DNA of 64,000 nucleotides from Chitinophagales bacterium (GTDB lineage Bacteria > Bacteroidota > Bacteroidia > Chitinophagales > CAIOSU01): contig JAWXCB010000077.1 in NCBI GenBank assembly GCA_034440455.1, forward strand, positions 33,679-97,678. The letters are read 5' to 3'. Shown piece by piece: positions 8,056-26,124 of the stretch. Position 1 is the first letter of the stretch. Each line of letters opens with the position of its first letter. The notes below the pieces were generated by a model. It was not told where the DNA came from. It searched no databases and worked only from the letters and a program-made list of their open reading frames with translations. A program made the translations under genes and the position numbers.

Positions 8056-8155
8056 AAAAACAATACGATTCTTGCTTTTTAATTCGATTTGTTTTCACCA
8101 TTTTCGTCTTTCCTCTCTGGCGCTATTGTTTAACTGTTAATTGAGATCTATTCAG

Positions 8156-9740: not shown

Positions 9741-9808
9741 CAGTTTTGGTGTGCGTTTTTTTACTCTGATAAATTCAGCACATCTTGCATCTAATATCAT
9801 ACTCAATT

Positions 9809-9883: not shown

Positions 9884-9897
9884 CTTTGATGAGTAAA

Positions 9898-9931
9898 GGG
9901 TTTCAGTCTAATCAGCTGGAACCCTTTTTTA
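9898..9931 (+). terminator. rho-independent terminator after the tRNA pair
   Basis: Stem GGGTTTCAG (9898-9906) pairs with CTGGAACCC (9916-9924) with one G-U pair, followed by a T run (9925-9930). Confidence 0.65.
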
Positions 9932-10053
9932 TTTGGTTTACCCTCTCTTTTTTTGATACTATCGGGAATAATAGCAAATACAGAGGCAACTCAGTGGCAT
10001 TCTGAATTACTTAGGGGCAGTTCTAAAAATTGATTTTTATCGCCTCACCCTAT

Positions 10054-11243: not shown

Positions 11244-12134
11244 ATGAGACGTGTAATGCGCGATGATGCGCTCGAAGCTAAGTTCCAGCGAGAAGGATAT
11301 GTGGTGATTCCTTTTATGACAAAGGAAGAAGTGGATGGGCTGAAGCAAAAATATTTTGAAACCCTTCCGCATAGTGGCGGGCAAATAACTGCTTCAGAAA
11401 CCGGGGTGGCAGATTCAAGAAACATAACCTACGATTTCACTTTCATTGACAAAAATGTTGCTTACAAGCGTGAAGTCTTTAAAATCATCACTGAATATTT
11501 CGCCCTTCACGTGGAGAAATGGCTTGCCGATTACAAGCCAATCATAGCCAACTATATCCATAAGAAAGGAGGAGGAGGCGAAGTGCCGCTGCATCAGAAC
11601 TACGCATTTGTTGACGAGCGCAAATGTACCTCGGTCTCCATTTGGCTGCCGTTGGTTGACAGCACTGAAGAAAACGGAACACTGCAAATTGTCCCCGGCA
11701 GCCATAAGCGCTTTTGTGAAATCAGGGGTCCGATGGTTCCTTGGGATTTAGATGATATCAAAAACGAAATCATCAATAATTTTTTAGTTCCGCTCAACAC
11801 AAAAGCGGGCAACGCAGTGATTTTAGATGACAGCATTGTTCATTACTCTGCAATCAACAAAACGAACGGGTTGCGTCTCACGATTCAGCTTATTTTAATT
11901 CCTGAAGAATTTCCTTCCATTCAATATCGGATGAATCCAGAAGTTAGCAGGGATGATGTAAATATTTTGGAAGTGAATCATGATTTTTATATGGAATCCA
12001 CTCCATGGAAAGAGCCGGAAGGTGCAAAAAAAATCGGCACCCTGAAATACCAGCACAACCCGATGTCAGTGGATGAGTTCAGAAAGAAACTTTTTGCAAG
12101 GCGATTTGATGAGAAGGAATTGCAAAGAGTATAG
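11244..12134 (+). CDS. PhyH-family Fe(II)/2OG dioxygenase paralog 1, with HQN instead of HQD
   Basis: FQREGYVVIPF; PLHQNYAFVDE; SIWLPLVDSTEENGTLQIVPGSHK; GNAVILDDSIVHYSAIN; RLTIQ. Confidence 0.75.
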   Translation: MRRVMRDDALEAKFQREGYVVIPFMTKEEVDGLKQKYFETLPHSGGQITASETGVADSRNITYDFTFIDKNVAYKREVFKIITEYFALHVEKWLADYKPIIANYIHKKGGGGEVPLHQNYAFVDERKCTSVSIWLPLVDSTEENGTLQIVPGSHKRFCEIRGPMVPWDLDDIKNEIINNFLVPLNTKAGNAVILDDSIVHYSAINKTNGLRLTIQLILIPEEFPSIQYRMNPEVSRDDVNILEVNHDFYMESTPWKEPEGAKKIGTLKYQHNPMSVDEFRKKLFARRFDEKELQRV

Positions 12135-12175
12135 CCTGCAACTCGCGGGGATGGAAAACTAAATACTAACCATAC

Positions 12176-14107
12176 ATGGTAACCAGAATTTTCAAAGAGT
12201 CAGGTCTTCAAGAGCAATTCGACCGTGATGGGTTTGTGGTGCTTCCTTTGTTGAATACAGAAGAAGTAACCAAGCTTACCGTTTTTTTTCACAGCCTGCA
12301 TCAACAAGCGCCTTCAGGATTTTACTCTTCCGTTTTCAGCGACAACCTTGAATTCAAAAATTCAATTAAAACCTTCGCTGAAAAAATTTACGCATCAAAA
12401 GTTGATTCCACTTTTCAAGGGATTAGAAAGCTTGGCGCCAGTTTTCTTTGTAAATCACCGGGTGCTGAGGGCAGAATGCCCGTTCATCAGGATTGGACGG
12501 TGGTGGATGAATCGAAATTTTGTTCCATCACCATTTGGGTTCCGCTGGTTGATACGGATGAATCAAACGGTGCCATCAGAGTTTTGCGGGGCAGTCACAA
12601 ACTCACGAATACGCTTCGCGCGCCAAACGTGGTGAGTGAATATGAAAATGTGAAGGACGAAATCTGGAATGAGTTGGAAACGCTGCCGATGAAAGCGGGT
12701 GAAGCCTTTGTTTTTAATCATGCGCTGATTCATGCTTCCTCCCCTAACATTACTTCAAAAGAAAGAATTGCTGTCGCGTATGGTTTAATACCGCTTGAGG
12801 CAGAATTGTTTCTTTATCACAAAAATGAAAACAACAAACTTGAGCAATACAAGATGCCGGATGATATGTTTTTGCGTTATCACAACATCGGTGAGCGCGC
12901 TACATTCGGTGAGAAAGTCGGGGAGTTTGATTATGAGGAAAAACAAGTGAATTCATTGAAGTTGCACCACCTGTTAACGAAGATGAGAAGGGAGAGAAAC
13001 ATGCAACCGCTTTTTAAAGATTCGGCAGTGCTGGAATTTTTTGAGCGGGAGGGATATGCAAAAATTAAAGTGCTGGATGAAAAAGAAATAAAGGAACTTC
13101 TGGACTTCTACAATTCATTAGATATGAAGGGCGAAGGGGAGGGATACGGTATCACCATAAGCTTAGAGAGCAAGGATAAAATTTTTGCCGAGCGCATTCT
13201 CAGTAAAATTTATGAAATAGCGCTGGCGAAAGTTGCATCTCATTTCCAAAATGCGAAAGCGCATCTTGCCAGTTTTATAATAAAGGATGCAAATTCCAAG
13301 ACTATTGTGCCTGTTCATCAGGACTGGAGTTTCATTGACGAAGAAGACAAATATTGCTCCGTGACCTGCTGGATACCGTTAGTGGATGTTACATTTGAAA
13401 ATGGCGCGCTTGGAGTTATTCGCGGCAGCCATAAATTTTTTACCACCTACCGCCCTTCCCCGTCTCCTCAATCCCCCGTGCCGCTGGCAGAACACATCTT
13501 CACGATCTTCCCCTATTTAAAAGTTGTCGAAATGAAGGCGGGCGAGGCGTTGGTGTTTGATAACAGGACATTTCATGGCTCGCCACCCAATTCATCCAAC
13601 CATCCTCGGATTGCTATCGGGATTGGACTGACACAGAAAGACGCAAAACTTTGTCATTTCTACCATAAACCGGGTTGCACTTATAAAGATAAATTACTAA
13701 AATACAGGATTGACCCGAGTTTTTTTAGAACATACGAGAATGCAACTCTCTCAAAAATGTATGACAAAGGAGAAACAATTGAAGGTTATCCGTTGGAAGG
13801 AGAAGTGCCCTATGCATTTCCAAAGTTTACGGCAGATGAATTGATTGAATTGGTTAAAGAACATGGAAACGAATTCAATATGCACTTAGGCGAGTCGCTG
13901 GCTAAACTTTTTAATTACGATATAAACGGCACAAGAAAAGAAGATGTGCCATCACAGCCCGTACCTGTAGAGTTTGAAAAAGTGGAAGAAATTCAGGCGC
14001 AACAAGCAGCGGCAGAATATGTATGGATAGATGACCGAAGTTTTTTCAGGAAATACACACTTGGCAACATTCTGCGCGAAATGAAGAAAAAAATTTTGGC
14101 AGAATAA
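12176..14107 (+). CDS. tandem di-domain PhyH-family dioxygenase (two complete catalytic domains in one ORF)
   Basis: Domain 1: FDRDGFVVLPL, PVHQDWTVVDE, TIWVPLVDTDESNGAIRVLRGSHK, IHASSPN. Domain 2: FEREGYAKIKV, PVHQDWSFIDE, TCWIPLVDVTFENGALGVIRGSHK, FHGSPPN. Confidence 0.85.
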   Translation: MVTRIFKESGLQEQFDRDGFVVLPLLNTEEVTKLTVFFHSLHQQAPSGFYSSVFSDNLEFKNSIKTFAEKIYASKVDSTFQGIRKLGASFLCKSPGAEGRMPVHQDWTVVDESKFCSITIWVPLVDTDESNGAIRVLRGSHKLTNTLRAPNVVSEYENVKDEIWNELETLPMKAGEAFVFNHALIHASSPNITSKERIAVAYGLIPLEAELFLYHKNENNKLEQYKMPDDMFLRYHNIGERATFGEKVGEFDYEEKQVNSLKLHHLLTKMRRERNMQPLFKDSAVLEFFEREGYAKIKVLDEKEIKELLDFYNSLDMKGEGEGYGITISLESKDKIFAERILSKIYEIALAKVASHFQNAKAHLASFIIKDANSKTIVPVHQDWSFIDEEDKYCSVTCWIPLVDVTFENGALGVIRGSHKFFTTYRPSPSPQSPVPLAEHIFTIFPYLKVVEMKAGEALVFDNRTFHGSPPNSSNHPRIAIGIGLTQKDAKLCHFYHKPGCTYKDKLLKYRIDPSFFRTYENATLSKMYDKGETIEGYPLEGEVPYAFPKFTADELIELVKEHGNEFNMHLGESLAKLFNYDINGTRKEDVPSQPVPVEFEKVEEIQAQQAAAEYVWIDDRSFFRKYTLGNILREMKKKILAE

Positions 14108-14116
14108 ATTGAAAGT

Positions 14117-15013
14117 ATGTTTTCTTTCCCAAAAATGCTCAAGGTTTTTCGTAATGATATCCATCAACTACAGTTTGAGCGGGACGGGTTTCTCGTGCTG
14201 CCATTTTACAATCAAGATGAGATTCGGGAATTGAATGAACTCTATCATCGCCTCCATCCTAAAGATGAAAAAGGTTTTTTTCCCAGTACGTTTTCAAAAG
14301 ATAAAAATTACCGCAAAATCGCGGATGAAGAAATCCGAAGAATCGGACAGCGGTCTATGAGTAATTACATCCAGGATGTTAAAGTGATGTGCGGCAGCTT
14401 TATCGTAAAATCATCAGGACCGGAAAGTGCGATGTGTGTCCATCAGGATATGACTTTGGTTGATGAGGCTAAATACACGGGCATCAATATCTGGATACCG
14501 CTGATTGACTTGAACGATGAAAACGGAACTCTTGAAGTCCTGCCCGGCAGTCACAGAATATTCCCGACTTATCGCAGTTCGACAGTTCCCGGTATTTATG
14601 ATGAGAGTAGTGCGGAAATCAAAAAGTATCTGGTGAGGCTTTACCCAAAAGCCGGTGAAGCAATTTTCTTTGACCAAAGCATTATTCATTATTCTGATGC
14701 CAATCTTTCAAACCAAACTAGAATCGTCACCAACACCTATTTTACACACAAGGACGCCACGTTTCAAATCTGCTATTGGCAAAAGGATTTCGGGAACAAA
14801 GTGGAACTATTCCGTGAAGATGAACATTTCATGACCGATTTTGAGCAGTTCGGGGAAAACATTCATGACCGCCCTAAAATTGGAAAAAGCTTGGGGCTTT
14901 ATGATTATGATTTTCCGAAAATCACCCCGGAGCAACTGAATGAGCTTTATGGGAAAAATGGCAAATCAAAAAAATCATTATTCAAACGCGTACTCCATTC
15001 ATTATTCAGTTAA
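14117..15013 (+). CDS. PhyH-family Fe(II)/2OG dioxygenase paralog
   Basis: FERDGFLVLPF; CVHQDMTLVDE; NIWIPLIDLNDENGTLEVLPGSHR; IHYSDAN; C-terminal SLFKRVLHSLFS. Confidence 0.85.
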   Translation: MFSFPKMLKVFRNDIHQLQFERDGFLVLPFYNQDEIRELNELYHRLHPKDEKGFFPSTFSKDKNYRKIADEEIRRIGQRSMSNYIQDVKVMCGSFIVKSSGPESAMCVHQDMTLVDEAKYTGINIWIPLIDLNDENGTLEVLPGSHRIFPTYRSSTVPGIYDESSAEIKKYLVRLYPKAGEAIFFDQSIIHYSDANLSNQTRIVTNTYFTHKDATFQICYWQKDFGNKVELFREDEHFMTDFEQFGENIHDRPKIGKSLGLYDYDFPKITPEQLNELYGKNGKSKKSLFKRVLHSLFS

Positions 15014-15015
15014 AG

Positions 15016-15966
15016 ATGACAAAGCGAATTTTCAAAGACGATGCAATGCAAGAGAAGTTCCAAAAACAGGGATTTATCACGGTGCCGTTTTTGGATGAAA
15101 ATGAATTGGATTACCTCAACCATTTTTTTGATGAGCTGCATCCAAACCCTCAGGGTGGATTTGTGTCTGGAAGTTACTCAAGCGACTTTGCATATAAAAA
15201 GAAAACAAGCGATGAGATCGTTCGCGTATTCAGCAGGCATTATGAAAGACTATTCGTAAACTACCAACCTTTTGGAGCTACGTTTCTATATAAACTTCCT
15301 TTCCAGGAAAGCGGAGTCGCTGTTCATCAGGATTGGACAATTGTTGACGAAACGAAAGCTGTCGCCCTGAATTGCTGGGTTCCTCTTTGCGATGTTACGA
15401 TGGATAACGGGCCCATAATGATTTTACCTGGTAGTCATTTTGATAACCTTAATGTAGTTCGCTCGCCAACTTTGCCGTTCTTTTTTTCAGGAAGCGATGA
15501 AATCATCGTCCAAGAATTGGAACCCATGGTGGTAAAGGCAGGAACTGCAGTCATCTTGAATCAAAGCGTAATACACTACTCGCCTGCCAATCAAAGCGGG
15601 CAAATCAGAAAAGCTATCACTGCGGGCGTTAAATCTGCTGGCGCACAAATGTATTTCCATTACAAAAATCCTAATATCGGCATGGATGAGTTGGAAGTAT
15701 TTGAAGAAGATGATGATTTCTTGCTAAGATTTGAAAACTTTGCAGAAGATATTGCGAACCGTCCAAAACTCGGCAGGAGTAAGGGATTCATTCCTTACAA
15801 GCTGCCACAGTATAGCGGGAATGAACTTTATGAACTGGTTAAAAAGATGAAATCATCTGCTGGGTACTCACTTAAATCAAAATTTAGTAAGCAGGAAGAA
15901 CAGCCTTCTGTTGGTCATAAACGCCAGTCATTCATGCAACGCCTTTCTTCCATATTTCAAAACTGA
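15016..15966 (+). CDS. PhyH-family Fe(II)/2OG dioxygenase paralog
   Basis: FQKQGFITVPF; AVHQDWTIVDE; NCWVPLCDVTMDNGPIMILPGSH; IHYSPAN; C-terminal SFMQRLSSIFQN. Confidence 0.85.
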   Translation: MTKRIFKDDAMQEKFQKQGFITVPFLDENELDYLNHFFDELHPNPQGGFVSGSYSSDFAYKKKTSDEIVRVFSRHYERLFVNYQPFGATFLYKLPFQESGVAVHQDWTIVDETKAVALNCWVPLCDVTMDNGPIMILPGSHFDNLNVVRSPTLPFFFSGSDEIIVQELEPMVVKAGTAVILNQSVIHYSPANQSGQIRKAITAGVKSAGAQMYFHYKNPNIGMDELEVFEEDDDFLLRFENFAEDIANRPKLGRSKGFIPYKLPQYSGNELYELVKKMKSSAGYSLKSKFSKQEEQPSVGHKRQSFMQRLSSIFQN

Positions 15967-15967
15967 A

Positions 15968-16819
15968 ATGCCTGAAAAGATTTTACAGGATGACCAATTG
16001 GATAAGCAACTCTTGGAGACAGGATTTGCAGTAGTTTCCTTTTTAAATCAGAAAGAAACCAGCGCTTTAGTTGACTTTTTCTATCAGCATCATCCCAATG
16101 GAGTTTCTGGTTTCTATGCTACCGCTCATTCCCACGATATTGCATTCAGAAATCGGATGAACGATGAAATAAAAAAAAACTTTCAAAGAGCCATTGGCAA
16201 TTACTTTCATAAATGTACTGCGCTTGGCGGGTCGTTCGTGGTGAAATCAAATACGCAAAAAGAACGACTACACCCTCACCAAGACTGGAATATTGTGGAC
16301 GAAGAACAGCATCGCTCATTTAATATTTGGGTTCCGCTGGTTGATTTGACTGAAAAAAACGGAACCATCCGGGTGATGCCCGGCAGTCATCGCTGGGTGA
16401 AAAATTATCGCGGACCAAATATCCCTGACCTTTCTGAAAGCGCACAAGAACAAATCTGGCAGCGTATGACTCCGCTTTATATGAAAGCAGGCGAGGCGTT
16501 AATTTATGACCATCGGTTGTTTCACGCATCTGACTCGAACACTACGGATGAGTTGCGTATTGCCACCGTATTTGGAATCATTCCTGAGAGAGCGCAAATG
16601 CTCTACTATTATGGAAACGGGAAACAAGTGGAAATTTATAAGAGCAGCGCGAATTTTTTTCTGAATGAAAATATGCAGAAGGGAAACCTGATACTCCAGA
16701 AAGTAAACACCGTTCAATTACCAGTTGTATCCTTTTCACAATTCCTACAGTTGGAAGAAACAAGTGTTAATAGGGTAAAGAAAACCGGACTTTTTAATTT
16801 TATTAGAAGATTGTTCTAA
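15968..16819 (+). CDS. PhyH-family Fe(II)/2OG dioxygenase paralog
   Basis: The track ORF starts at 15911. ATG 15968 (MPEKILQDD), 1 nt after the upstream stop, is more plausible. HPHQDWNIVDE; NIWVPLVDLTEKNGTIRVMPGSHR; FHASDSN; C-terminal GLFNFIRRLF. Confidence 0.85.
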   Translation: MPEKILQDDQLDKQLLETGFAVVSFLNQKETSALVDFFYQHHPNGVSGFYATAHSHDIAFRNRMNDEIKKNFQRAIGNYFHKCTALGGSFVVKSNTQKERLHPHQDWNIVDEEQHRSFNIWVPLVDLTEKNGTIRVMPGSHRWVKNYRGPNIPDLSESAQEQIWQRMTPLYMKAGEALIYDHRLFHASDSNTTDELRIATVFGIIPERAQMLYYYGNGKQVEIYKSSANFFLNENMQKGNLILQKVNTVQLPVVSFSQFLQLEETSVNRVKKTGLFNFIRRLF

Positions 16820-16828
16820 TTTACTGTT

Positions 16829-17761
16829 ATGGAATTAAGCGTTAGCGCATTACTCAACCGGATATTAGACAGGCCTACAGTAGTCAACCCGCAGCAGGAA
16901 ATCAGGAGGGAAGGCTTTTTTTTAGATGAAAAAAATCATGAACACTATTTAAAGCATGGATGGTGTACGATTAAAAATATGACCACAGCTGAGGAAATAG
17001 AATCCTTCATGCACACTTTTCACGAGATTTCTAAGCTTAATGGTTTTGAACTGGATAAAAATCTGCTTAACAGCGGAAGACTTTTTAATCCGGAAATAAG
17101 GAAAAAAGTGCAGGAAGTAATTAATCTGAATGCTAAAACCATTTTGCCCCGTATGTTCAAGATGGAAAAGGTGGACCCGCACACTGGTGGAGCATTTCAG
17201 GTGAAACCTCCGCATATAAACAGCGACTTATTGATTCATCAGGATAGCACAGTGATAGATGAAGACAAAGACTACTGCCTCTTTGTATGGATTCCTTTCT
17301 GTGCTATTACGATGGAGAACGGACCTATCTCTTTTCTTCCGGGCAGCCACCTTTGGGGAAACAACCAACGCAGTTTAGGCGTACCCTGGCAGTTTCGCAA
17401 GCACACGAAGACGCTCTATCAATATGTGAAAACGGTGACAGTAAATGCAGGCGATGCAATTGTATTTGACCCTGCAACCATTCATGCGAGCGCTCCGAAT
17501 CTTTCAAAAGAAATTCGACATGCCATAACAATCACCGTGTTGAGAAGAAATTATCAGTTGGTTTATTACTTCAGAAACAAAGAGATAGATGATAGCCTGA
17601 TTGAAAAATATTATGTGGATGAAACCTTCTATTACGGATATGATTTCATTTCAAAACCCGATGAAACCAAATGGAGAAAAGAGATTGTGAAATTTGAACC
17701 TTTTAACCTGACTGAAAAGCAATTAGTCAGGCTGATAAAAAAACATTTACCAAAAGAGTAG
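16829..17761 (+). CDS. PhyH-family Fe(II)/2OG dioxygenase paralog
   Basis: LIHQDSTVIDE; FVWIPFCAITMENGPISFLPGSH; IHASAPN. Confidence 0.8.
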   Translation: MELSVSALLNRILDRPTVVNPQQEIRREGFFLDEKNHEHYLKHGWCTIKNMTTAEEIESFMHTFHEISKLNGFELDKNLLNSGRLFNPEIRKKVQEVINLNAKTILPRMFKMEKVDPHTGGAFQVKPPHINSDLLIHQDSTVIDEDKDYCLFVWIPFCAITMENGPISFLPGSHLWGNNQRSLGVPWQFRKHTKTLYQYVKTVTVNAGDAIVFDPATIHASAPNLSKEIRHAITITVLRRNYQLVYYFRNKEIDDSLIEKYYVDETFYYGYDFISKPDETKWRKEIVKFEPFNLTEKQLVRLIKKHLPKE

Positions 17762-17814
17762 GTCGCAAATATGCAAGAGAGCGCAGCGACTGCATGATAA
17801 GATTCGTTTAACCG

Positions 17815-18660
17815 ATGTATCCCGTTTTCCAAAATCAATCCTTCCAAAAACAATTCGAGCGGAAAGGGTATGTATTGCTCTCCTCGCTGTTAAGCGATGC
17901 GGAAGTGAAAGAACTTTATGATTTGTTTGAGCGGTTTCCAAGCCAGTATTCCGCACCTTTTCACACCACGCATTTCAGCGCGGATATTTCTTATAAAAAA
18001 CAAGTTCACGATACGATTGCTTCCGTTGTGTTTCCGAAATTGAAACCTTATCTTAATCGCTTCGTTCCATTGTTTGGAAACTTCATGATAAAAAACGCAG
18101 GCGCGCAAACAAGCATGGATCTTCATGCAGATTGGACTTATGTGGATGAGCAGCGTCATAGTTCTGCCGCAGTATGGATTCCATTAATTGATGTAAATGA
18201 AGAGAACGGATGCTTGGGAGTAATTGAAGGTTCGCATAAAGTCACCAACAGCATTCGCGGTCCGATGATACGGCAAAGCAGTCGGCAAAAAGAGGAAGAC
18301 TGGGCAAAGGGGTATGGTAAATTAATTCCCATGAGCGCGGGAGGCGCTATCGTTTATGACCACCGTCTGCTGCATTATTCCCCATCAAATAAAACAACGA
18401 AAGTCAGACCCGCTCTGAATCTTTCGATGGCGCCCGAGTCTGCCACCTGGCTTCATTATTGTTTTCCTGAAGGAGCTGAAGCAATAGAATTATATTCTGT
18501 GCCTGACAGCGATTTTTTTATGCGCTATAATAATTTTCAAAGACCCGAAACAGGCTCGCTCATTAAAACCTTACCAACAGATTCCGTAGAGTATATAGAT
18601 GCGCGGATGAAAAATTTTTGGAAAACGAGTATGCTAAATAAAATAAGGCAATTGTTTTAA
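17815..18660 (+). CDS. PhyH-family Fe(II)/2OG dioxygenase paralog (HAD variant)
   Basis: FERKGYVLLSSL; DLHADWTYVDE; AVWIPLIDVNEENGCLGVIEGSHK; LHYSPSN; C-terminal NFWKTSMLNKIRQLF. Confidence 0.8.
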   Translation: MYPVFQNQSFQKQFERKGYVLLSSLLSDAEVKELYDLFERFPSQYSAPFHTTHFSADISYKKQVHDTIASVVFPKLKPYLNRFVPLFGNFMIKNAGAQTSMDLHADWTYVDEQRHSSAAVWIPLIDVNEENGCLGVIEGSHKVTNSIRGPMIRQSSRQKEEDWAKGYGKLIPMSAGGAIVYDHRLLHYSPSNKTTKVRPALNLSMAPESATWLHYCFPEGAEAIELYSVPDSDFFMRYNNFQRPETGSLIKTLPTDSVEYIDARMKNFWKTSMLNKIRQLF

Positions 18661-18667
18661 ATCCAGT

Positions 18668-19966
18668 TTACTGCGCTTTTTGTATCTCCCAATCCAATGG
18701 AGGTCGCACCGAACCTTTACTGATGTCTCCGATAATATCTACATATCCCGGTTCCGGGTGGATAGTAAAATGCAATTTGTCGGATAGCCGGAAAGCCTCT
18801 GTGGAAGCAGGACTCCACTCATTTTCCTCCACGCCAAAACGCACAAACAGATAATATCTTCCGGGAGCTAAAAAGTGGGGCGGGATGGTGCATTTAATTT
18901 CAATCATGCCGGTTTCGTCTTTCAGTTGCCGGTCAAAATCTTGTTGTGTAGAATTATTTAACAAATGACCTACCATCACCGATTGATAAAATACATCTTG
19001 TAAAAAAAAGAAAACACCAATCAGGATGCCTGATTTTTTTTTGTGAATTAAAAATTTTATCAGAATTGGATCTGCATGGAAAATCTTATCTGTTTCAGCA
19101 AGAGAATTTACTGATAAACGATGAATAGTCAAGTTATCGTTTCCTGGAGCAGTTTGGTTATTCCATTCCAACTGAACGGTGTTCTTAATTTCCTCCTGAG
19201 GAGAAGGATGGTTATTTTCTTTATCATTTTCCTCTTTCTGCAATTCATATTTTTCACGATGCATTTCAAAATAATCGCCTAAGATGTCAGAAGGGAGTCC
19301 TATTTCTTTTATGCGACCCTTCTCTAACCAAATACATTTATTGCTCAATTCCAAAATCTCCATCCTGTCATGTGAAACAAATAAGATTGTTTTACCGCTG
19401 CCGGCAAACATTTTAAGTAACTCCTGACATTTTAAACGAAATCCTTCGTCACCTACTGAAAGCACTTCATCTAAAATCAGAATATCAGATGACAGATGGA
19501 AAGCCATGGAAAAAGCTAAACGCAAAAACATTCCGCTTGAGTAGAATTTAACAGGCTGGTCAAAGAAGTCGCCAATTTCACTAAATCGCTTTATTTTATC
19601 GTAATAGACTTCGAATTCATTCCGCTTTATTTTTTCAATTCTTAACTGGATAGTGATATTTTCTCTGCCTGTTAAATCGGGATGAAAATTATTTCCGATT
19701 TCAAGGATGGAAGTAACGGAACCATAGAAGCGGGCTTCTCCTGAAGTAGGTTTGACAATTTGACTTAGAATTTTCAGCAGTGTGGTTTTTCCGGAGCCAT
19801 TGCTTCCAATAATTCCGACAACATCTCCCTTGTGCAGCGTAAAAGAAATATCCTTTAAAGCTAAAAATGAATTTTCAGCAGCAGTTGAATCCTCGCTGCC
19901 ATTAACTATTTTATACTTCTTTGAAATTTGCTTAACCTCAATAGCAACGTCTTTCTTTTCATTCAT
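18668..19966 (-). CDS. wzt: ABC exporter ATP-binding protein, Wzt/TagH-like, with ~180-aa C-terminal extension
   Basis: Walker A GIIGSNGSGKTTLLK, signature-like YSSGMFLRLAFS, and Walker B ILILDEVLSVGD. The C-terminal beta-rich region (LEWNNQTAPGNDNLTIHRLSV...HFTIHP) sits where the Wzt carbohydrate-binding domain is found. Confidence 0.85.
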   Translation of the reverse strand: MNEKKDVAIEVKQISKKYKIVNGSEDSTAAENSFLALKDISFTLHKGDVVGIIGSNGSGKTTLLKILSQIVKPTSGEARFYGSVTSILEIGNNFHPDLTGRENITIQLRIEKIKRNEFEVYYDKIKRFSEIGDFFDQPVKFYSSGMFLRLAFSMAFHLSSDILILDEVLSVGDEGFRLKCQELLKMFAGSGKTILFVSHDRMEILELSNKCIWLEKGRIKEIGLPSDILGDYFEMHREKYELQKEENDKENNHPSPQEEIKNTVQLEWNNQTAPGNDNLTIHRLSVNSLAETDKIFHADPILIKFLIHKKKSGILIGVFFFLQDVFYQSVMVGHLLNNSTQQDFDRQLKDETGMIEIKCTIPPHFLAPGRYYLFVRFGVEENEWSPASTEAFRLSDKLHFTIHPEPGYVDIIGDISKGSVRPPLDWEIQKAQ

Positions 19967-21699
19967 GCTTCAATTATAGAAGAATTTAAAATTATTTTCA
20001 GTTCTTCCTTTGGCAATTTAGTTAAGTAGTTCTTGAATGTTCCTTTATATTCTCCTGTAAGATGCTTGCTGTTTCCATCCCAATCATCAGCCATGTAATA
20101 ATTATGAGATTCTTCCGATACGTCAATGGAGCCTTCTTCCATTTTTTCGCTGAAGAAACTATAGTATTGAGACGCAAAATGAGTCAAGCGGAAAGTAAAG
20201 CAAAGTCTGTCTATGCTTGTATTGTTCGCTGTTGAATTATGGAGCAGATTGTTGTCAAACACAACTGCTTGTCCCGCCTTTAGCGTCATTGGAACCTCAT
20301 ACTGTCTTAGCCATTCTGTATGGTGATTATGATATCCTCCAAAAGAAGACCCGAAAACAGCTCTATTTACCTTGTGACTTAATGGGATAATTGTAAGCGC
20401 GCCATTGTTGCTATCCACAGCTATCAATGGCACCCAAATTGCATAATGCGGTTCCAGTTGATGATTAAGCAAAAGTGTGCTGTCTGCATGAAGATCAATA
20501 TCGCCAGAGGTAAAAGCTTTTTTAGTATAAAACTGAGAAACAGGTATAATAAATTCTTTAAAATATTTTCTTAAAGGCGCGTCAACATTTGCAACTATAA
20601 AATTATGCATCTGCTTTTTCAAAACTGCATCGGTGTCCTGAAGCGTTGTGAATCTGCCGGGTGTTCTGTCCAGATTTCCAAAGTGGAGATTATACTCTTT
20701 TTTGAAAAGATCTATTGTTGCCAAATCTAACAAGTCAATTACTGCATAGCCCTCTTGATTTAACTTCTGCTCTAAATCACTGCCAACCGTTACATGCAAC
20801 TGTTTTAATTGTGCGGCATTCACTTTTCCAACTTTATTCCGGTAGTGGACTATTAAATCCGCTGAACCGACTTCTTCGTTCTTTGTTGGACAAATTGCTT
20901 TTGTGTCGAAGAGAGTTAAACTTTCATCAATGATTCCTTTTTCAAGCGCTTGCAAGTGGGTGATTAATTTCTCTCCGGTAATCGCATAAAGTTCAGTGCG
21001 TTCCTGTTCAGCGTTTTTGTGGAAATAATAAGTAGGCGCGCTGTTTTCTACATAATTTGCAATCACTGCAATCCGGTCGCTATCAGTTGTGTTTGGATGA
21101 GAAGCGTGAAATAATCCGTTGTGATAAATCAGCGCATTTCCCGGAGGCACAATGATGTCCGTAATCAACTGCTTCAATTTTTCCTCGCTGCGAATCACCG
21201 GAATACCATAGCTTCCTGAGCGGTAGTTGCCCAAAAACCGGTGACTGCCGGGCATAACGAATATGCCGCCATTTGTAGGGCAAGCAAGTTGTAAAGGAAT
21301 CCAAACCTGATAACTTCTGTGCTTTGATTCATCCACAATATTCCAATCCTGATGCAGCGAGAATTCTTTATTTACATGCGCTCCTTTTACCACAAAATGA
21401 CCGATGAAGAAGGTGAACCCGGGTAGGATGCGCTGAATGCTTTCGTTTACAATGTTTTTTATTTCACTGTTTATTTTCAGACTTTGCTCTATCGGGTTTG
21501 AATTGTGAGAGGAATAGAGTTGTTCAATTATTTTCGAGCCGAAATTTTCCTGATAAAGAGAACGCAATTTTTCTATTTGCTCGTCATCAAAAACCTTTAA
21601 CGTGCAAAACCCTAAGCTATCAAGCGCTTCTAAACAGGGATGATAAATAGTTTCTGAATGATTTGTATCCATGTTCAACAGGTGATTTATTGTTGTCAT
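19963..21699 (-). CDS. tandem di-domain PhyH-family dioxygenase
   Basis: Domain 1: SLHQDWNIVDE, QVWIPLQLACPTNGGIFVMPGSHR, FHASHPN. Domain 2: IDLHADSTLL, AIWVPLIAVDSNNGALTIIPLSHK, LHNSTAN. The annotated start overlaps the upstream gene by 80 nt. The internal ATG at 21672 still overlaps by 53 nt. The stop overlaps the wzt start by 4 nt. Confidence 0.8.
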   Translation of the reverse strand: MTTINHLLNMDTNHSETIYHPCLEALDSLGFCTLKVFDDEQIEKLRSLYQENFGSKIIEQLYSSHNSNPIEQSLKINSEIKNIVNESIQRILPGFTFFIGHFVVKGAHVNKEFSLHQDWNIVDESKHRSYQVWIPLQLACPTNGGIFVMPGSHRFLGNYRSGSYGIPVIRSEEKLKQLITDIIVPPGNALIYHNGLFHASHPNTTDSDRIAVIANYVENSAPTYYFHKNAEQERTELYAITGEKLITHLQALEKGIIDESLTLFDTKAICPTKNEEVGSADLIVHYRNKVGKVNAAQLKQLHVTVGSDLEQKLNQEGYAVIDLLDLATIDLFKKEYNLHFGNLDRTPGRFTTLQDTDAVLKKQMHNFIVANVDAPLRKYFKEFIIPVSQFYTKKAFTSGDIDLHADSTLLLNHQLEPHYAIWVPLIAVDSNNGALTIIPLSHKVNRAVFGSSFGGYHNHHTEWLRQYEVPMTLKAGQAVVFDNNLLHNSTANNTSIDRLCFTFRLTHFASQYYSFFSEKMEEGSIDVSEESHNYYMADDWDGNSKHLTGEYKGTFKNYLTKLPKEELKIILNSSIIEA

Positions 21700-22537
21700 T
21701 AAGTTGATTTGCCCACTCTAAGAAATCAGCAGCCTCAACGGGCGAGAAATCATATTCAAATGTTTCTATGAGCGCGGCATTTGCAGGACGCTCTCCGCCT
21801 TTTAAATTGACGAAATCCGTTAAGGTCATTGCGTATTTTTCTACCTTATTTTTCGGATTGCCTTCCGGCAAAAAATAATGAAGTATCTCCGCATCTTCCG
21901 GCACCATCGCTAAAATAGCGGCTACTCTAACTTGCTCTGATAAGTTGGGATAGGAGGCGTGTATGCACGCATGATTAAGCACAACGCATTCCCCGATTTC
22001 GGTAGTAACATCTGTAAAATAGGTTGGAATCAGTGAGGCAACGCTTTCATATTTCCATGGATAAGAAGGCAGCGGACGTATCGTGTCGCGCAGGCGATGG
22101 CTGCCTTTCAGAAACCGCAGGCATCCGTTGGCTTTGCTTGTGGGCGTAGTCGCAACCCAAATATTGAAGGAGTAGTATTTGCGCTCATCTACAAAGCGCA
22201 AGTCCTGATGTGGTCCCAGCGCGGAAGCCTCACAGGATTGTTTGAGCAGGTAATTAGCCGCTATCGTTTTGTAGCGATGGAAATGTTTGTCAATTTCTTC
22301 AAACATCACTTGCTTAATAAACGCATCAGCGCTGGCTATCAGCGCGGCATTATCCGTGTCGTTGGTGGCATGAAATTTTTTTTTGTCAATCACCGTTTCA
22401 TGCGCGCCCTGAGTATTGAAATAAAAATCATGCAGCCGCTTTACCTGTTCTTCTGAGAACAAGCGAAATTTCACAAAACCATTCTCATCAAATTCGTTTT
22501 GCAGTTTTTCATCGCGGAATACGCTAGGCTTTTTCAT
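21620..22537 (-). CDS. PhyH-family Fe(II)/2OG dioxygenase paralog
   Basis: FDENGFVKFRLF; GPHQDLRFVDE; NIWVATTPTSKANGCLRFLKGSHR; IHASYPN; C-terminal SFRNYLSSLFRSA. Confidence 0.8.
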   Translation of the reverse strand: MKKPSVFRDEKLQNEFDENGFVKFRLFSEEQVKRLHDFYFNTQGAHETVIDKKKFHATNDTDNAALIASADAFIKQVMFEEIDKHFHRYKTIAANYLLKQSCEASALGPHQDLRFVDERKYYSFNIWVATTPTSKANGCLRFLKGSHRLRDTIRPLPSYPWKYESVASLIPTYFTDVTTEIGECVVLNHACIHASYPNLSEQVRVAAILAMVPEDAEILHYFLPEGNPKNKVEKYAMTLTDFVNLKGGERPANAALIETFEYDFSPVEAADFLEWANQLNDNNKSPVEHGYKSFRNYLSSLFRSA

Positions 22538-23427
22538 GTGACGCTTCGCTCAGAGTGCTTGAATAGATTTAAAACGGAGTTGATGATTGATGAGCGACTC
22601 CCCATGTTTTTCTTTAAGAGCGCATTGAATTCATCGGGCTTTAATTGCTTAAAGTCATGGTTTATTTCATTCTGAAAAATGCCTTTCAAAGGCGGGCATC
22701 CTTTTTTAAAATGCAGAAACGCTTCTTTTGTCATTCCGAATTTTTGTACAACATTCTTGCGGATATCCGGAAGATAAAAGTGGAGCAGCTCCGCCTCATT
22801 CTGATATGCCGCAATTACTGCGGCTACTCTGGGCGTATTTGTTTCATTTGAAAATGAACCGTGAACCACCGCATGATTAAAAATAATTGCTTCCCCGGCT
22901 TTCATCGGATAAGATTCCGAGTGTTGCTTGATTTCATCAATTACATTTTCATAACACCACTTATAGTCGTGCGTGGGTCTTAACGTATCTGTAAACGCAT
23001 GACTTCCTTTTAGCAGATACATGCAGCCATTCTCTTTATTTGTGTCCTGTAGGGCTACCCAAATATTTACAGACACATACTTTGTTTCATCTACAAAAGT
23101 GATATCCTGATGCGGTGAAGTTTCAGATTCCGGAACGGGCATTTTTACCAAATAGTTGCCGAAAAGCAAATTGTAATTCACTAAGTACTTATCAATTGCA
23201 GGCGATATCACTTTCTGTAGCATATTGTCCACTTGCATTATCAGGGCAGCATCATTTGAGTGACTGGTTGTAATATATGGGATATTAATTTTTTCATGCG
23301 AATCAGAAACGGTTTTGTAAGCAGTCATCAATTCATTTACTTCTGCCAGAGTCAGTAAGGTGACTTTTACAAAGCCATTTTTTTCAAATCCGCTTTGAAG
23401 CTCTGCCGATTTAAATAATGGTTTCAT
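22534..23427 (-). CDS. PhyH-family Fe(II)/2OG dioxygenase paralog
   Basis: FEKNGFVKVTLL; SPHQDITFVDE; NIWVALQDTNKENGCMYLLKGSH; VHGSFSN. Overlaps both neighbours by 4 nt. Confidence 0.8.
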   Translation of the reverse strand: MKPLFKSAELQSGFEKNGFVKVTLLTLAEVNELMTAYKTVSDSHEKINIPYITTSHSNDAALIMQVDNMLQKVISPAIDKYLVNYNLLFGNYLVKMPVPESETSPHQDITFVDETKYVSVNIWVALQDTNKENGCMYLLKGSHAFTDTLRPTHDYKWCYENVIDEIKQHSESYPMKAGEAIIFNHAVVHGSFSNETNTPRVAAVIAAYQNEAELLHFYLPDIRKNVVQKFGMTKEAFLHFKKGCPPLKGIFQNEINHDFKQLKPDEFNALLKKNMGSRSSIINSVLNLFKHSERSVT

Positions 23428-24317
23428 ACAGATGCTTCAGTTCTGAACACGTTTTTGATCTTTTGAAAGTAATTGGCAAGCCGTCCCCTGTCTGCGCCAA
23501 CTTTTTTGATGAAATCTTCCTTAGTGATTTCAGGAAAAGTAAACGAAATATATTGCTTAAATGATTTGCTGTCGGGTTTGCCGTCTTTCGGCATGGAAAT
23601 AAAAATATCCAGATCTAAGTGATATTGTTCTATTTTGTCTTTTACGGCATTTCTCTCCTTATAGTACAACAGCCATTCTGCATTTTTAGAACAAATAAGC
23701 AGGGTGGCAGCTAATCTTAATTGACCGGATAAATTTTCAGTAGCACCGTGTATCGTGGCATTATTAAAAATTACCGCCTCGCCTTTTTTTAAGGGTACAT
23801 GCACTGCCATTTCTGCAAGGGAATCATTGAAACTTGCGTAATAGTTTGGAGTTTCTGGTACAATTCTCAGCGATTTAACTGCATGGTTTGACCCTCTGAT
23901 AAAATAGAGATTCCCATTTTTTTTATCGGTATCCTGAAGCGCTACCCAAACATTTGCGCTACAGTATTTTGTTTCATCAACAAAAGTAGGATCCTGATGT
24001 GCGCCTGTGGCAGAACCAGCGCTCGGTTCTTTTATATGAAAGCACCCGACTAAGGATTCAAAGTCATTCAGAATTTTTTCCAGTTCGGGGACATAAACTG
24101 ACTTAATAGTTGAATCAACCTGATAAATCAAATCAGCATTTGCGGTTTCAGTTGTGGTGTGATGAAGAGACGCTACAGTTGCATGTTGTTGCAGTGTATT
24201 CTGAAATAGCTCCACTAATTTGTCAACCTGACTATCCTTGAGCAGGGGAATTTTTACAAATCCATTTCTCTCAAATAAGGATTGCAAGTGTTTGTTTTTA
24301 AAAAGAGGCTGAACCAT
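23424..24317 (-). CDS. PhyH-family Fe(II)/2OG dioxygenase paralog
   Basis: FERNGFVKIPLL; GAHQDPTFVDE; NVWVALQDTDKKNGNLYFIRGSNH; IHGATEN. First gene of the minus-strand run that ends in wzt. Confidence 0.8.
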   Translation of the reverse strand: MVQPLFKNKHLQSLFERNGFVKIPLLKDSQVDKLVELFQNTLQQHATVASLHHTTTETANADLIYQVDSTIKSVYVPELEKILNDFESLVGCFHIKEPSAGSATGAHQDPTFVDETKYCSANVWVALQDTDKKNGNLYFIRGSNHAVKSLRIVPETPNYYASFNDSLAEMAVHVPLKKGEAVIFNNATIHGATENLSGQLRLAATLLICSKNAEWLLYYKERNAVKDKIEQYHLDLDIFISMPKDGKPDSKSFKQYISFTFPEITKEDFIKKVGADRGRLANYFQKIKNVFRTEASV

Positions 24318-24441
24318 TTTTGCTTACTCTTTTGAGTACCTAAACACTTATTGCGCCAAGGCTTGGGAAGATTAAAATTAGTTAAGTTTGGCTTAGAAAC
24401 TGTTGACTTAGGTCACTAATTATCGCCAAACAAAAGTTCAA

Positions 24442-25314
24442 ATGATTGAAACGCCACGCATATTTGGTTCGGATGTTTTCTTCAAGTTTATTGAAGTTCC
24501 CTTCGCAAATATTGAACAAGCCGGTTCATTGGTACATCAGATAAAAAGCAAAGAGATTGCAGGTTTTATAATGAAAAGTGTTTTCAAGCCTGATCAGATT
24601 AGCCAAATCAAAGACTTTCTGGGAAAATTATCGGAGAGCGAATTTATGCCTACCCCTTCAGGGAAAATTTTTCCAGCGCCATTTGCCATCATTACTGACA
24701 CGGAGCAAATGCTGGATACTTATTATTCCAAACTTTCAATCCTTGATGATTACAAAAGGAGCAATCCTGCACTTAAAACTTTAACAGATACGCTGGATTT
24801 ATTTTTCAAAAGCGTTGCAAACAACTATCAGGTCAGCATTCCCATTAACAAAATAAAAAATACAGAAGTCGCACCGGGAACATTCAGGCTATTCTATCCT
24901 AATAGAGGAGGGTTGCATGTTCATTGCGGTAATTTGTTTCAAGCACAATCTATGTTTTATTACTCACTAATAAAAAATGACATAGATATGGATGACCAAC
25001 TAAGTTATTTTGTAGTGTTGCAGCAATCCGAGACAGGAGGAGAATTAACATTATATGATATGTTGTGGGAGAGAGCAAAGCGTAAAGAAAGTCCTGAAAA
25101 CAACGAGTTTATTATAGATGACTCGGGGAGTCCTATTTATATAAAGGATATGAAGAGTTTTGCGGTAAAACCTGTACCTGGTGATATTCTTGTATTTTCA
25201 GGTGGTCCAATATGGCATCGGGTAGAAGATATAACAGGAACGATTCCAAGAATTACATTTGGAGGTTTCCTAAATTTCTCTAAGGATAACAAAGAGCTTT
25301 TCTACTGGTCATAA
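24442..25314 (+). CDS. double-stranded beta-helix protein, P4H-like 2OG-Fe(II) oxygenase fold with HxH in place of HxD
   Basis: GGLHVHCGN, SETGGELTLYD, and PGDILVFSGGPIWHRVEDI...RITFGGFL resemble the prolyl-4-hydroxylase-type DSBH layout. The first metal motif reads H-V-H. Confidence 0.4.
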   Translation: MIETPRIFGSDVFFKFIEVPFANIEQAGSLVHQIKSKEIAGFIMKSVFKPDQISQIKDFLGKLSESEFMPTPSGKIFPAPFAIITDTEQMLDTYYSKLSILDDYKRSNPALKTLTDTLDLFFKSVANNYQVSIPINKIKNTEVAPGTFRLFYPNRGGLHVHCGNLFQAQSMFYYSLIKNDIDMDDQLSYFVVLQQSETGGELTLYDMLWERAKRKESPENNEFIIDDSGSPIYIKDMKSFAVKPVPGDILVFSGGPIWHRVEDITGTIPRITFGGFLNFSKDNKELFYWS

Positions 25315-26124
25315 TTTCTTTATAATTGACCTATTTACCAATTCTGCTTCTGTAATGATATGGTGCGTATAGTTTATTCTTCTTTCTTCGGGTAAATCAG
25401 GATTACCACGAATGGCTACGGTTTTCAAAGTTCTTAATAAAGTAGCATCATCTAAGCAGAATACTTTTACTTCATCGGTTGCCTCTCCTTGTTGGAAATA
25501 AAGAAAAGGAGCAGATTTAGGCAGTAGGGTAGCTGTAACAATCACGCGATGTTTGGAGGAAAGATTGGGAGAAGAACCATGAAAAATTGCCGGATGAAAT
25601 ACGAGTACCTGACCTTTCTTTAAAGTAACTGAGATAATTTGCTCAGATGAAAAAATTTTGCTGCTTATTCTCGCAGTTGGAAGCGAAGCCGACCGCAGAT
25701 TATCAAACCATAAATGACTTCCCGGTAAAAAAAACATTGCGCCATTTTCTTCTGTGATGTCTGTTAAAGGAATCCAGATATTATACGCGCTGTGCTTTTT
25801 CTCATCGGTATAGCACCAGTCTTGGTGTAGCAATAGTTCATCTGGAGTATTAGCGGGTTTTACAAGAAACGATTCTGTCACTGTTCTGTAGTCTGTGAAG
25901 TTTGCTTCATAGAAGGAATGCAGAATTTTTTTGAAATGCTGACAGATGCTTTTGTTTTGTTCAAAATCGTTTTCAAGCAGGCTGTAATAAAAATGGGGAT
26001 GTGAAATTTTGAAATGAGCGCGAATGAAGGAATGCAGTTGTTCTGTCTCCTCAATCAGATTTGCATCTATCACGGCAAAGCCGGCTTTAGAAATTTCCTG
26101 AAATAGTTCCGCGCTTTTAAACAT
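25309..26124 (-). CDS. PhyH-family Fe(II)/2OG dioxygenase paralog
   Basis: LLHQDWCYTDE; NIWIPLTDITEENGAMFFLPGSH; FHGSSPN. Its 3' end overlaps the convergent gene by 6 nt. Confidence 0.8.
   Translation of the reverse strand: MFKSAELFQEISKAGFAVIDANLIEETEQLHSFIRAHFKISHPHFYYSLLENDFEQNKSICQHFKKILHSFYEANFTDYRTVTESFLVKPANTPDELLLHQDWCYTDEKKHSAYNIWIPLTDITEENGAMFFLPGSHLWFDNLRSASLPTARISSKIFSSEQIISVTLKKGQVLVFHPAIFHGSSPNLSSKHRVIVTATLLPKSAPFLYFQQGEATDEVKVFCLDDATLLRTLKTVAIRGNPDLPEERRINYTHHIITEAELVNRSIIKKL

Follow-up and report, generated by a model that had tools for sequence, protein, structure and literature searches.

Conserved arrays of PhyH-family oxygenases beside a Wzm-like transporter gene in uncultured Bacteroidota: candidates for tailoring a surface glycoconjugate before export

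What might a single bacterial locus do with 15 domains of one oxygenase family? The question is raised by a 64,000-nucleotide stretch of DNA (here called the window; contig JAWXCB010000077.1, positions 33,679 to 97,678) from a metagenome-assembled genome (MAG) of an uncultured freshwater member of the Bacteroidota, Chitinophagales, in which 13 genes encode PhyH-family Fe(II)/2-oxoglutarate (Fe/2OG) oxygenases. Thirteen such genes within about 31 kb are far beyond chance. We found that five of them form a core shared with many other genomes, and we put at roughly one in two the probability that the array encodes cytoplasmic, membrane-peripheral enzymes that tailor a membrane-anchored surface glycoconjugate before its export by a Wzm/Wzt-type ATP-binding cassette (ABC) transporter. 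The PhyH family, the type of transporter, and the idea of PhyH enzymes acting on sugars were already known. What is new is a conserved core of several oxygenases linked to Wzm, the growth of this core to 15 domains, evidence in the sequences for putative membrane tethering and for fusion, and an apparent H-x-N...D-x3-H variant of the iron site.

A sequence-only reading of this DNA had counted 12 PhyH genes with 14 domains between positions 11244 and 26124, plus one outlying gene. Pfam PF05721, with a cutoff of 22 bits, matched all 12 (E values from 9e-17 to 1e-43) as well as the outlying Phy13, and the 13 genes and 15 domains of the window scored 62 to 151 bits; the 12 genes give 14 domains because Phy02 and Phy08 are didomain proteins (Table 1). 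The motif scaffold that had been read in the translations, F(E/D)(R/K)(D/N)G(F/Y), HQDW..VDE, W.PL.D...NG......GSH(K/R), H.S..N, and a downstream Arg, is present, and the scores together with the catalytic residues bear out the assignment to the 2OG-oxygenase family. A double-stranded beta-helix fold is predicted for the domains from their sequence alignments with PhyH-type structures that have been solved. The statement that every open reading frame (ORF) in the two converging runs belongs to it holds for these 12 genes, but not for two genes lying among them: one on the minus strand encodes the Wzt ATPase, and another on the plus strand belongs to the WelO5 family by Pfam. An all-versus-all comparison of the 15 domains gave a median pairwise identity of 28% (range, 19 to 50%), indicating that they are old paralogs rather than recent copies, as had been proposed.

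The tight, operon-like packing was reproduced when the gene spacings were measured: the plus-strand run has intergenic spacings of 41, 9, 2, 9, and 53 nt, and the minus-strand run has three overlaps of 4 nt each. The longest ORF of Phy05, starting at 15911, overlaps its neighbor by 56 nt, and an internal ATG at 15968 would give a 1-nt gap; that of Phy08 overlaps its upstream neighbor by 80 nt. Both longest-ORF starts are probably too long. Judged from the spacing only, the array appears to be cotranscribed and translationally coupled. The two converging runs end 7 nt apart, stop to stop (18660-18668), so that a terminator hairpin would not fit there.

The window turned out to be a rich example of a widespread locus type rather than a singular one, as indicated by the core and the accessory genes of related loci. 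One genome per species was scanned for sites encoding a relative of Phy02. The species-representative genomes gave at least 209 such sites, and more than 580 Phy02 homologs were found. The 80 of these 209 sites that were retrieved are all from MAGs, nearly all labeled Bacteroidota (Chitinophagales, Flavobacteriales, and Saprospiraceae). Comparing every ORF of 83 related loci (L001 to L083) with the window proteins, we found a syntenic core of five PhyH genes with six domains, (Wzm)-Phy01-Phy02(didomain)-Phy03-Phy04-(Phy05), whose orthologs are 45 to 75% identical and keep an unchanged order in dozens of other genomes. Orthologs of Phy03 occur in 74 of the 83 loci, those of Phy04 in 60, and those of Phy05 in 54; the accessory Phy06 is the best match of ORFs in 10 loci. 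Each core paralog thus has its own collinear orthologs, which supports distinct, conserved roles and, with them, the earlier suggestion of distinct specificities. The related loci have a median of 6 and a maximum of 13 PhyH ORFs, two of them (L074 and L076) equaling the window with 13 PhyH ORFs in 22 kb.

Neighborhoods combining wzm/wzt with several PhyH genes were likewise found in many uncultured Bacteroidota. Wzm lies no more than 6 kb from the core in 30 of the 51 loci with good flanks, directly adjoining the Phy01 ortholog in most related loci; among the 47 loci of at least 18 kb, 32 encode Wzm or Wzt and 25 contain glycan genes. Around the core stands a variable accessory set, namely, extra PhyH, Wzt, WelO5-like, B12-binding radical S-adenosylmethionine (SAM), and N-twitch radical SAM genes, an AspH-like hydroxylase, a Cupin_8 protein, and a tetratricopeptide repeat (TPR) membrane protein, joined in related loci by DegT, GNAT, β-ketoacyl-ACP synthase III (KAS III), GT8, GT87, GDSL, and FabG-like short-chain dehydrogenase/reductase (SDR) genes. 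This variable set may diversify the surface structure between lineages. The sequence-only reading knew of no characterized locus with this many PhyH enzymes, and we found none in the full-text literature on PhyH, lipopolysaccharide (LPS) or O-antigen, Bacteroidetes, and glycan modification, where the only such genes were one or two uncharacterized PhyH genes of Xanthomonas LPS cassettes.

The array seems to be catalytically intact. In the alignment to the hidden Markov model, the first His, the Asp (Asn in Phy01), the distal His, and the Arg are present in 15 of the 15 window domains; the facial triad reads H-x-D...H in 14 of them and H-x-N in Phy01, and the 2OG-binding Arg is also invariant or nearly so in orthologs of the core paralogs. 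Both HxD...H...R sets of Phy02 are invariant in 81 sequences, and the catalytic residues are intact in 525 of 528 full-length domain matches from the window and the related loci. Since 15 of 15 and 525 of 528 domains retain these residues, we rejected the possibility that part of the array consists of inactive pseudo-enzymes.

Phy01 carries a distinct iron site. The Asn at its triad Asp column (Asn119) is accompanied by an Asp (Asp196) located four positions ahead of the distal His, and both are invariant in all 67 sequences compared (Phy01 and 66 orthologs), the other paralog groups having Gln, His, or Asn at the latter position. Among 556 domains of the window and the related loci, H-x-N co-occurs with the upstream Asp in 69 of 69 cases, and only 4 of about 460 H-x-D domains have an acid at that place; the covariation was repeated in a wider representative library (60 of 61). 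The PhyH-type enzyme HygX, which makes an orthoester in an oligosaccharide substrate, has an iron site that reads H-x-G...E-x3-H (PMC13374393). The acidic ligand is relocated in HygX and apparently likewise in Phy01, with Asn at the vacated triad position of Phy01 where HygX has Gly; HygX gave no alignment to Phy01 at E ≤ 1 in PDB sequence searches. Taken together, the covariation and the analogy with HygX suggest that the carboxylate ligand of Phy01 is relocated and that its chemistry is possibly non-hydroxylating, as in HygX.

The ends of the PhyH proteins and their fusions point to the membrane. No hydrophobic segments or signal peptides were found in a scan of the window PhyH proteins, most of which have a short C-terminal segment that is cationic and amphipathic; KSLFKRVLHSLFS and SFMQRLSSIFQN are examples. 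This pattern is retained in orthologs even where the preceding linker diverges, and such ends occur in 50% of 410 PhyH ORFs, compared with frequencies of 12% among the remaining ORFs and 5% among internal segments. The tail may be a membrane-targeting helix. An exhaustive search of 1.84 billion cluster representatives found 1,819 Phy01 relatives at E ≤ 1e-10, the best 150 of which include 78 PhyH proteins with two domains and 11 with three. The fusion proteins came from the representative library (P0263, P0276, P0285, P0295, P0297, P0304, and P0373). Those collinear with the window are Phy01-Phy02N-Phy02C, Phy02C-Phy03, Phy03-Phy04, Phy04-Phy05, and Phy09-Phy08N-Phy08C. In P0373, a methyltransferase, an integral-membrane UbiA protein, and two PhyH domains form a single polypeptide; P0304 joins three PhyH domains to an AspH domain related to the Asp/Asn beta-hydroxylase-family protein of the window, and further fusions join PhyH domains to a cyclopropane fatty acid (CFA) synthase-like (CMAS-like) methyltransferase. 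The fusions of neighboring paralogs to one another and to UbiA suggest that the paralogs cooperate at the membrane on one pathway.

The association with wzm and wzt noticed in the sequence was borne out by Pfam, PDB sequence, and structure-model matches. Among NCBIfam models, those for galactan Wzm and KpsM match the permease best, but the scores fall far short of both cutoffs. The ATPase domain of Wzt is closest to TarH/TagH and Aquifex aeolicus Wzt in PDB sequence searches, with a weaker NCBIfam match to DrrA. Its AlphaFold2 model (predicted local distance difference test [pLDDT] score, 84) has full-length A. aeolicus Wzt chains as its best Foldseek matches (about 414 columns, E value of 5e-30), including the carbohydrate-binding domain (CBD); Pfam Wzt_C was seen in distant Wzt sequence homologs only. 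Wzt is thus predicted to carry a carbohydrate-binding-type C-terminal domain.

Glycosyltransferases (GTs) of two kinds accompany the transporter. The proteins of the two small GT2 genes are about 230 aa long and look most like polyprenyl-phosphate sugar synthases of the ArnC type, although they score far under the cutoffs of the ArnC and PpgS models; homologs of GT2b follow the core in several loci, paired with a UDP-GlcNAc 3-dehydrogenase-like gene. Three GT-C-like paralogs of about 560 aa match no Pfam family and share a soluble C-terminal domain that contains a CxC motif. The modeled paralog has ArnT, STT3, AftA, EmbC, and DPY19 as its top Foldseek matches (probability, 0.98 to 1.0; TM-score, 0.31 to 0.44) and a DDYG motif after its first transmembrane segment, in which D40 is nearly invariant and Y41 is invariant. 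The 973-aa TPR protein resembles PMT/TMTC proteins in architecture, its N-terminal 790 residues giving no family match, and its homologs adjoin the core in 7 loci. A homolog of the GDSL protein adjoins the PhyH array in L002. No GtrA, MATE, or SMR flippase was found at the locus.

How these parts might work together can be sketched as follows. The tailored intermediate would most likely be polyprenyl-phosphate linked, and the work would take place at the inner face of the cytoplasmic membrane, where the cationic amphipathic tails would tether the enzymes as a physically coupled series. Each paralog would oxidize a different C-H position of the lipid-linked intermediate, possible targets being sugar carbons, deoxy or C-methyl groups, and N-acyl substituents, and possible outcomes being hydroxylation, ketone formation, epimerization, or oxidative cyclization; Phy01, with its relocated carboxylate, may do non-hydroxylating chemistry of the HygX kind. 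The B12-binding radical SAM enzymes would add C-methyl groups, the methyltransferases of related loci would add further groups, and the WelO5-like H-x-G enzyme may chlorinate. Wzt would admit finished chains only, and the GT-C enzymes would add periplasmic side branches from polyprenyl-phosphate sugars. This glycoconjugate reading is supported by the presence in the locus of Wzm/Wzt with the CBD, an ArnC-like GT2, and GT-C proteins. Precedents exist for PhyH-type enzymes on sugars or oligosaccharides, such as HygX, EvdO1/O2, and AviO1 (PMC13374393), and for undecaprenyl-phosphate-linked sugar donors being modified by cytoplasmic enzymes ahead of GT-C transfer (PMC11127046).

Several points weigh against it. 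About one-third of the related loci have no Wzm or Wzt within 10 kb, and in seven loci the only partners of the core are UbiA and a methyltransferase. The 64-kb window contains neither an initiating phosphoglycosyltransferase nor a GT that obviously polymerizes chains, nor was a chain terminator found there, the only candidates being the two small GT2 proteins and the GT-C-type proteins; the initiating, extending, and terminating functions may be encoded elsewhere in the genome. The closest solved sequences to the window PhyH proteins in the PDB search include EvdO2, AviO1, SnoK, and SnoN, all of them weak matches, and the similarity to sugar-acting PhyH enzymes (E values of 1e-5 to 1e-11) is no better than that to PHYHD1 or phytanoyl-CoA hydroxylase. 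We tried to read the substrate from the nearest solved PhyH structures and abandoned the attempt, since the weak matches mix sugar, amino-acid, terpenoid, and acyl-CoA enzymes and are not diagnostic. UbiA, the OlsC/LpxO-like hydroxylase, and the CFA-synthase-like methyltransferase, which are the partners found in the fusions, can just as well be read as lipid enzymes. To our knowledge, 6 to 15 oxygenase domains far exceed any known glycan pathway. Finally, all hosts are uncultured, and the function of the tails, the cotranscription, and every chemical step are what we infer rather than what we observed.

The lipid-compatible fusion partners, the loci without Wzm or Wzt, and the lack of polymerizing GTs in the window make a prenyl-lipid product the main rival, which we regard as doubtful though a serious possibility. 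The locus would then make a prenylated lipid or meroterpenoid-like compound, with UbiA as the prenylating enzyme, with methyltransferases and B12-binding radical SAM, PhyH, AspH-like, and WelO5-like enzymes modifying unactivated lipid carbons, with the ABC-2 transporter as exporter, and with any sugars added late. The fusions of PhyH domains to UbiA (P0373), to AspH (P0304), and to the CMAS-like methyltransferase fit such a product, as do the UbiA-family membrane proteins and class-I methyltransferases that occur in 26 and 32 related loci, respectively; the seven loci that have the core and UbiA but lack Wzm/Wzt include the richest arrays, L074 and L076. KAS III and FabG-like SDR genes also occur in related loci. 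Within the window, the AspH gene is closest to OlsC (NCBIfam E value of 9e-32) and LpxO (2e-21), both below their cutoffs, and the B12-binding radical SAM genes are closest to lipid-type models and HpnJ, the best NCBIfam models for the two at 42884-45722 being HpnJ, PhpK, and AprD4, all below cutoffs. The enzyme after which the PhyH family is named has an isoprenoid chain as its substrate, and the fungal meroterpenoid dioxygenases SptF, PrhA, and AndA are among the weak PDB matches.

UbiA, a methyltransferase of this kind, and KAS III are all absent from the window itself, however, which has a glycopolymer-type transporter with a Wzt-type CBD, ArnC-like GT2 genes, and four GT-C-type proteins. 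Nor did we see a terpene cyclase, a polyketide synthase, or a pathway to an aromatic head group. The presence of UbiA in related loci does not point to lipids unambiguously either: NCBIfam returned generic prenyltransferase models only, the PDB search gave one weak DGGGP-synthase match or none, and the UbiA family also makes polyprenyl-phosphate-ribose for glycans (PMC11127046). The surface-glycoconjugate reading is the one that we regard as the most economical.

Besides the PhyH genes, the window encodes other enzymes for oxidative or radical chemistry. The WelO5-family protein matches WelO5/WelO15 structures with an E value of 4e-28 (about 100 bits), its VHCGN aligning with VHVGN and its WHRV with YHRV, and homologs occur in 13 related loci, where the iron motif alternates between HxG/HxA and HxE. 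Its H-C-G site makes it a candidate halogenase that may carry out chlorination. Five B12-binding and two N-twitch radical SAM genes lie within 20 kb, beside O2-dependent oxygenases. The N-twitch gene at 60454-61896 matches the NCBIfam model N_Twi_rSAM with an E value of 2e-47, scoring 162 bits against a cutoff of 170, and homologs of the N-twitch genes occur in 10 related loci. The Cupin_8 gene recurs beside the core in L021, L026, L029, and L055.

These enzymes invite a bolder version of the glycoconjugate reading, which we consider unlikely. At least six and up to 15 membrane-tethered Fe/2OG domains, among them an H-x-N...D-x3-H enzyme with its carboxylate relocated, would carry out post-assembly radical C-H functionalization of a lipid-linked glycan, working with B12-binding radical SAM C-methylases and a WelO5-type halogenase to give oxidatively cross-linked, C-methylated, and possibly chlorinated polysaccharides.

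The same enzymes can be assigned to a secreted product instead, a tailored oligosaccharide or small-molecule metabolite of the orthosomycin or aminoglycoside kind with the ABC-2 transporter as exporter or self-resistance pump, but we hold this to be very unlikely. PhyH-type oxygenases, B12-binding radical SAM enzymes, and many methyltransferases do co-occur in orthosomycin and aminoglycoside pathways (PMC13374393); one of the B12-binding radical SAM proteins (B12rSAM1) weakly matches AprD4, the H-x-N...D-x3-H of Phy01 recalls the H-x-G...E-x3-H of HygX, and the weaker match of Wzt to DrrA would suit a pump. Set against these likenesses are the absence of antibiotic-type sugar-nucleotide cassettes, resistance genes, and regulatory genes, the GT-C enzymes and the Wzt CBD, which indicate envelope polymers, and the synteny of the core over hundreds of species beside housekeeping genes, unlike patchy antibiotic clusters.

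A peptide or protein substrate, i.e., a proteusin-like ribosomally synthesized and posttranslationally modified peptide (RiPP) or envelope proteins hydroxylated and methylated on side chains, is highly improbable. The five B12-binding and two twitch/SPASM-type radical SAM genes, the Cupin_8/JmjC and Asp/Asn beta-hydroxylase-family genes, and the TPR protein of the window would fit it, but the transporter is of the Wzm/Wzt type, no leader peptidase, RiPP recognition element (RRE), or lanthipeptide-type genes were seen, and the radical SAM and AspH genes are accessory, outside the conserved core. We also compared small ORFs in intergenic gaps of at least 140 nt with the 83 related loci as candidate RiPP precursors, and none was conserved. 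Catabolism of external polymers was judged unlikely, there being no SusC/SusD or TonB-receptor genes and no signal peptides on the PhyH proteins.

Other genes of the neighborhood were recorded as well. Two DUF1800/DUF1501 pairs are interleaved with the GT-C-like genes (29200-31827 and 35734-38601, minus strand), and such a pair also stands beside the PhyH cores of L013 and L073. A multiheme c-type cytochrome with an N-terminal anchor (26267-27460, plus strand) adjoins the array, and its homologs occur in four related loci beside B12-binding radical SAM, Cupin_8, or GT-C-like genes. An arylsulfotransferase-like protein (PF14269; 34068-35741, plus strand) has N-terminal hydrophobic segments, and its homologs stand next to the PhyH arrays of L002, L013, and L083; its presence may point to sulfation. 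On the left, the island is bordered by dnaA (8141-9607), followed by tRNA-Ser(GCT) (9654-9741) and tRNA-Pro(TGG) (9809-9884), both on the plus strand, and then wzm. Rfam and tRNA scans of the window for noncoding RNA gave only these two tRNAs, and a 106-aa ORF at 9685-10005 is spurious because the tRNA genes overlap it. The N-terminal part of a 2-oxoglutarate dehydrogenase E1 (3-1982, minus strand), running off the left end of the window, is encoded by a housekeeping gene that is probably unrelated to the array.

TABLE 1 Features of the array and its surroundings, with window coordinates and the evidence for each
Feature	Coordinates	Strand	Evidence and remarks
Wzm-like ABC-2 permease	10180-11034	+	Pfam ABC2_membrane, E 1.5e-12
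Phy01	11244-12134	+	PF05721, E 3e-21; core; variant iron site H-Q-N ... D-S-I-V-H
Phy02	12176-14107	+	Two-domain; PF05721, E 1e-43, two stretches; marker of conserved core
Phy03	14117-15013	+	PF05721, E 8e-20; core
Phy04	15016-15966	+	PF05721, E 1.7e-18; core
Phy05	15911-16819	+	PF05721, E 1.2e-21; core; likely start ATG 15968
Phy06	16829-17761	+	PF05721, E 3e-24; accessory
Phy07	17815-18660	+	PF05721, E 4e-24; accessory
Wzt ABC ATPase with predicted C-terminal carbohydrate-binding-type domain	18668-19966	-	Pfam ABC_tran, PDB matches, model
Phy08	19963-21699	-	Two-domain; PF05721, E 1.7e-28, two stretches; accessory
Phy09	21620-22537	-	PF05721, E 9e-17; accessory
Phy10	22534-23427	-	PF05721, E 7e-21; accessory
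Phy11	23424-24317	-	PF05721, E 1.7e-21; accessory
WelO5-family Fe/2OG enzyme, H-C-G iron site	24442-25314	+	PF22814, E 5e-52, end-to-end HMM match
Phy12	25309-26124	-	PF05721, E 1e-26; accessory
GT-C-like membrane protein, paralog 1	27446-29152	-	24% identity to 49383-51086, shared invariant motifs; about 10 hydrophobic segments
GT-C-like membrane protein, paralog 2	32327-34003	-	22% identity to 49383-51086
GDSL/SGNH protein	39707-40867	-	Pfam Lipase_GDSL_2, E 1e-11; signal anchor, hydrophobic residues 5-23
GT2a, small GT2	40898-41599	-	Pfam Glycos_transf_2; ArnC best NCBIfam, residues 3-216 of 316, E 3e-22
Phy13	41647-42570	-	PF05721, E 3.7e-21; outlying; 50% identical to Phy02N
Two B12-binding radical SAM genes	42884-44272, 44337-45722	+	Pfam Radical_SAM and B12-binding
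Cupin_8/JmjC-type oxygenase	45748-46734	-	Pfam Cupin_8, E 5e-34
B12-binding radical SAM gene	46889-48484	+	Pfam matches
Asp/Asn beta-hydroxylase-family (AspH) oxygenase, OlsC/LpxO-like	48507-49256	+	PF05118, E 1e-40
GT-C-fold membrane protein, paralog 3	49383-51086	+	AlphaFold2 model, pLDDT 89
B12-binding radical SAM gene	51206-52807	+	Pfam; homologs adjoin core in 11 loci
GT2b, small GT2	52844-53533	-	Pfam Glycos_transf_2, E 8e-24
Protein with about 13 transmembrane segments and C-terminal TPR, 973 aa	53555-56476	-	TPR Pfam matches, residues 797-964; hydrophobic segments
B12-binding radical SAM gene	58404-59888	-	Pfam matches
Two radical SAM genes, N-terminal twitch domain	60454-61896, 61909-63345	-	Pfam Radical_SAM and SPASM

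Surface glycan diversity is thought to come mainly from the choice of sugars, their linkages, and simple substituents. If the glycoconjugate reading is true, an oxygenase battery in a Wzm/Wzt locus adds late-stage C-H chemistry on an assembled, lipid-linked molecule, and the arrays offer a large natural panel of regiospecific Fe/2OG enzymes built on one scaffold; in its bolder version, the products would be a class of polysaccharides never described chemically. If the prenyl-lipid reading is true instead, the same organisms would make an undescribed family of poly-oxygenated prenyl lipids. The sites encoding Phy02 relatives are mostly in abundant freshwater and wastewater Bacteroidota. The apparent metal-site variant and the candidate free-standing halogenase are of interest for biocatalysis.

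Among known systems, the carrier-independent halogenases WelO5 and AmbO5 have in the WelO5-family protein of the window a relative that retains the H-x-G motif and the distal His, but it is distant (about 100 bits), and it stands in a glycan locus of a Bacteroidota host rather than in a cyanobacterial hapalindole pathway. HygX, EvdO1/O2, AviO1, SnoK/SnoN, and KanJ belong to the same Pfam family as the array and act on assembled oligosaccharides or attached sugars. These antibiotic-pathway enzymes are soluble and work on free metabolites, each pathway using one to three of them, and their identity to the window proteins is low (E values of 1e-5 to 1e-11), whereas the window and the related loci have 6 to 15 domains, membrane-type tails, and an envelope-glycan context. 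KdoO and LpxO, two Fe/2OG hydroxylases, act on LPS at the inner membrane. Like the proposed array, they depend on O2 and 2OG and modify their envelope glycolipid on the cytoplasmic side, ahead of export, but they are single enzymes of other 2OG subfamilies and have no counterpart to a PhyH array; in the window, a resemblance to LpxO or OlsC is confined to the AspH gene. Xanthomonas wzm/wzt LPS cassettes (XAC3597; BXO8-type) contain a PhyH gene together with prenyltransferase and methyltransferase genes, differing from the loci described here in having one or two PhyH copies of putative function and no conserved multigene core.

Three-component periplasmic glycosylation systems (GtrABC, ArnC/ArnT, and PPPRS-flippase-GT136; PMC11127046) share with these loci a candidate polyprenyl-phosphate-sugar synthase, i.e., the ArnC-like GT2 of the window or UbiA in related loci, and GT-C-fold transferases that have an additional C-terminal domain. 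Their cytoplasmic enzymes that remodel a lipid-linked donor sugar (PMC11127046) are a precedent for the role proposed for the array, but the known ones are NAD/FAD epimerases rather than 2OG oxygenases, and the flippases of such systems have no counterpart at the window locus. A further parallel is ABC-dependent O-antigen export, as in Escherichia coli O9a and in WzmWzt of A. aeolicus. We know of no O-antigen system with a CBD-bearing Wzt that has 2OG oxygenases in number, and the window differs from such systems in lacking initiating or polymerizing GTs and a known chain terminator and in having wzm and wzt separated by seven oxygenase genes. It shares with them the ABC-2 permease, and its Wzt matches the nucleotide-binding and C-terminal beta-rich domains of A. 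aeolicus Wzt; in those systems the chain is assembled and tailored in the cytoplasm before export, which is the order of events that we propose for the window.

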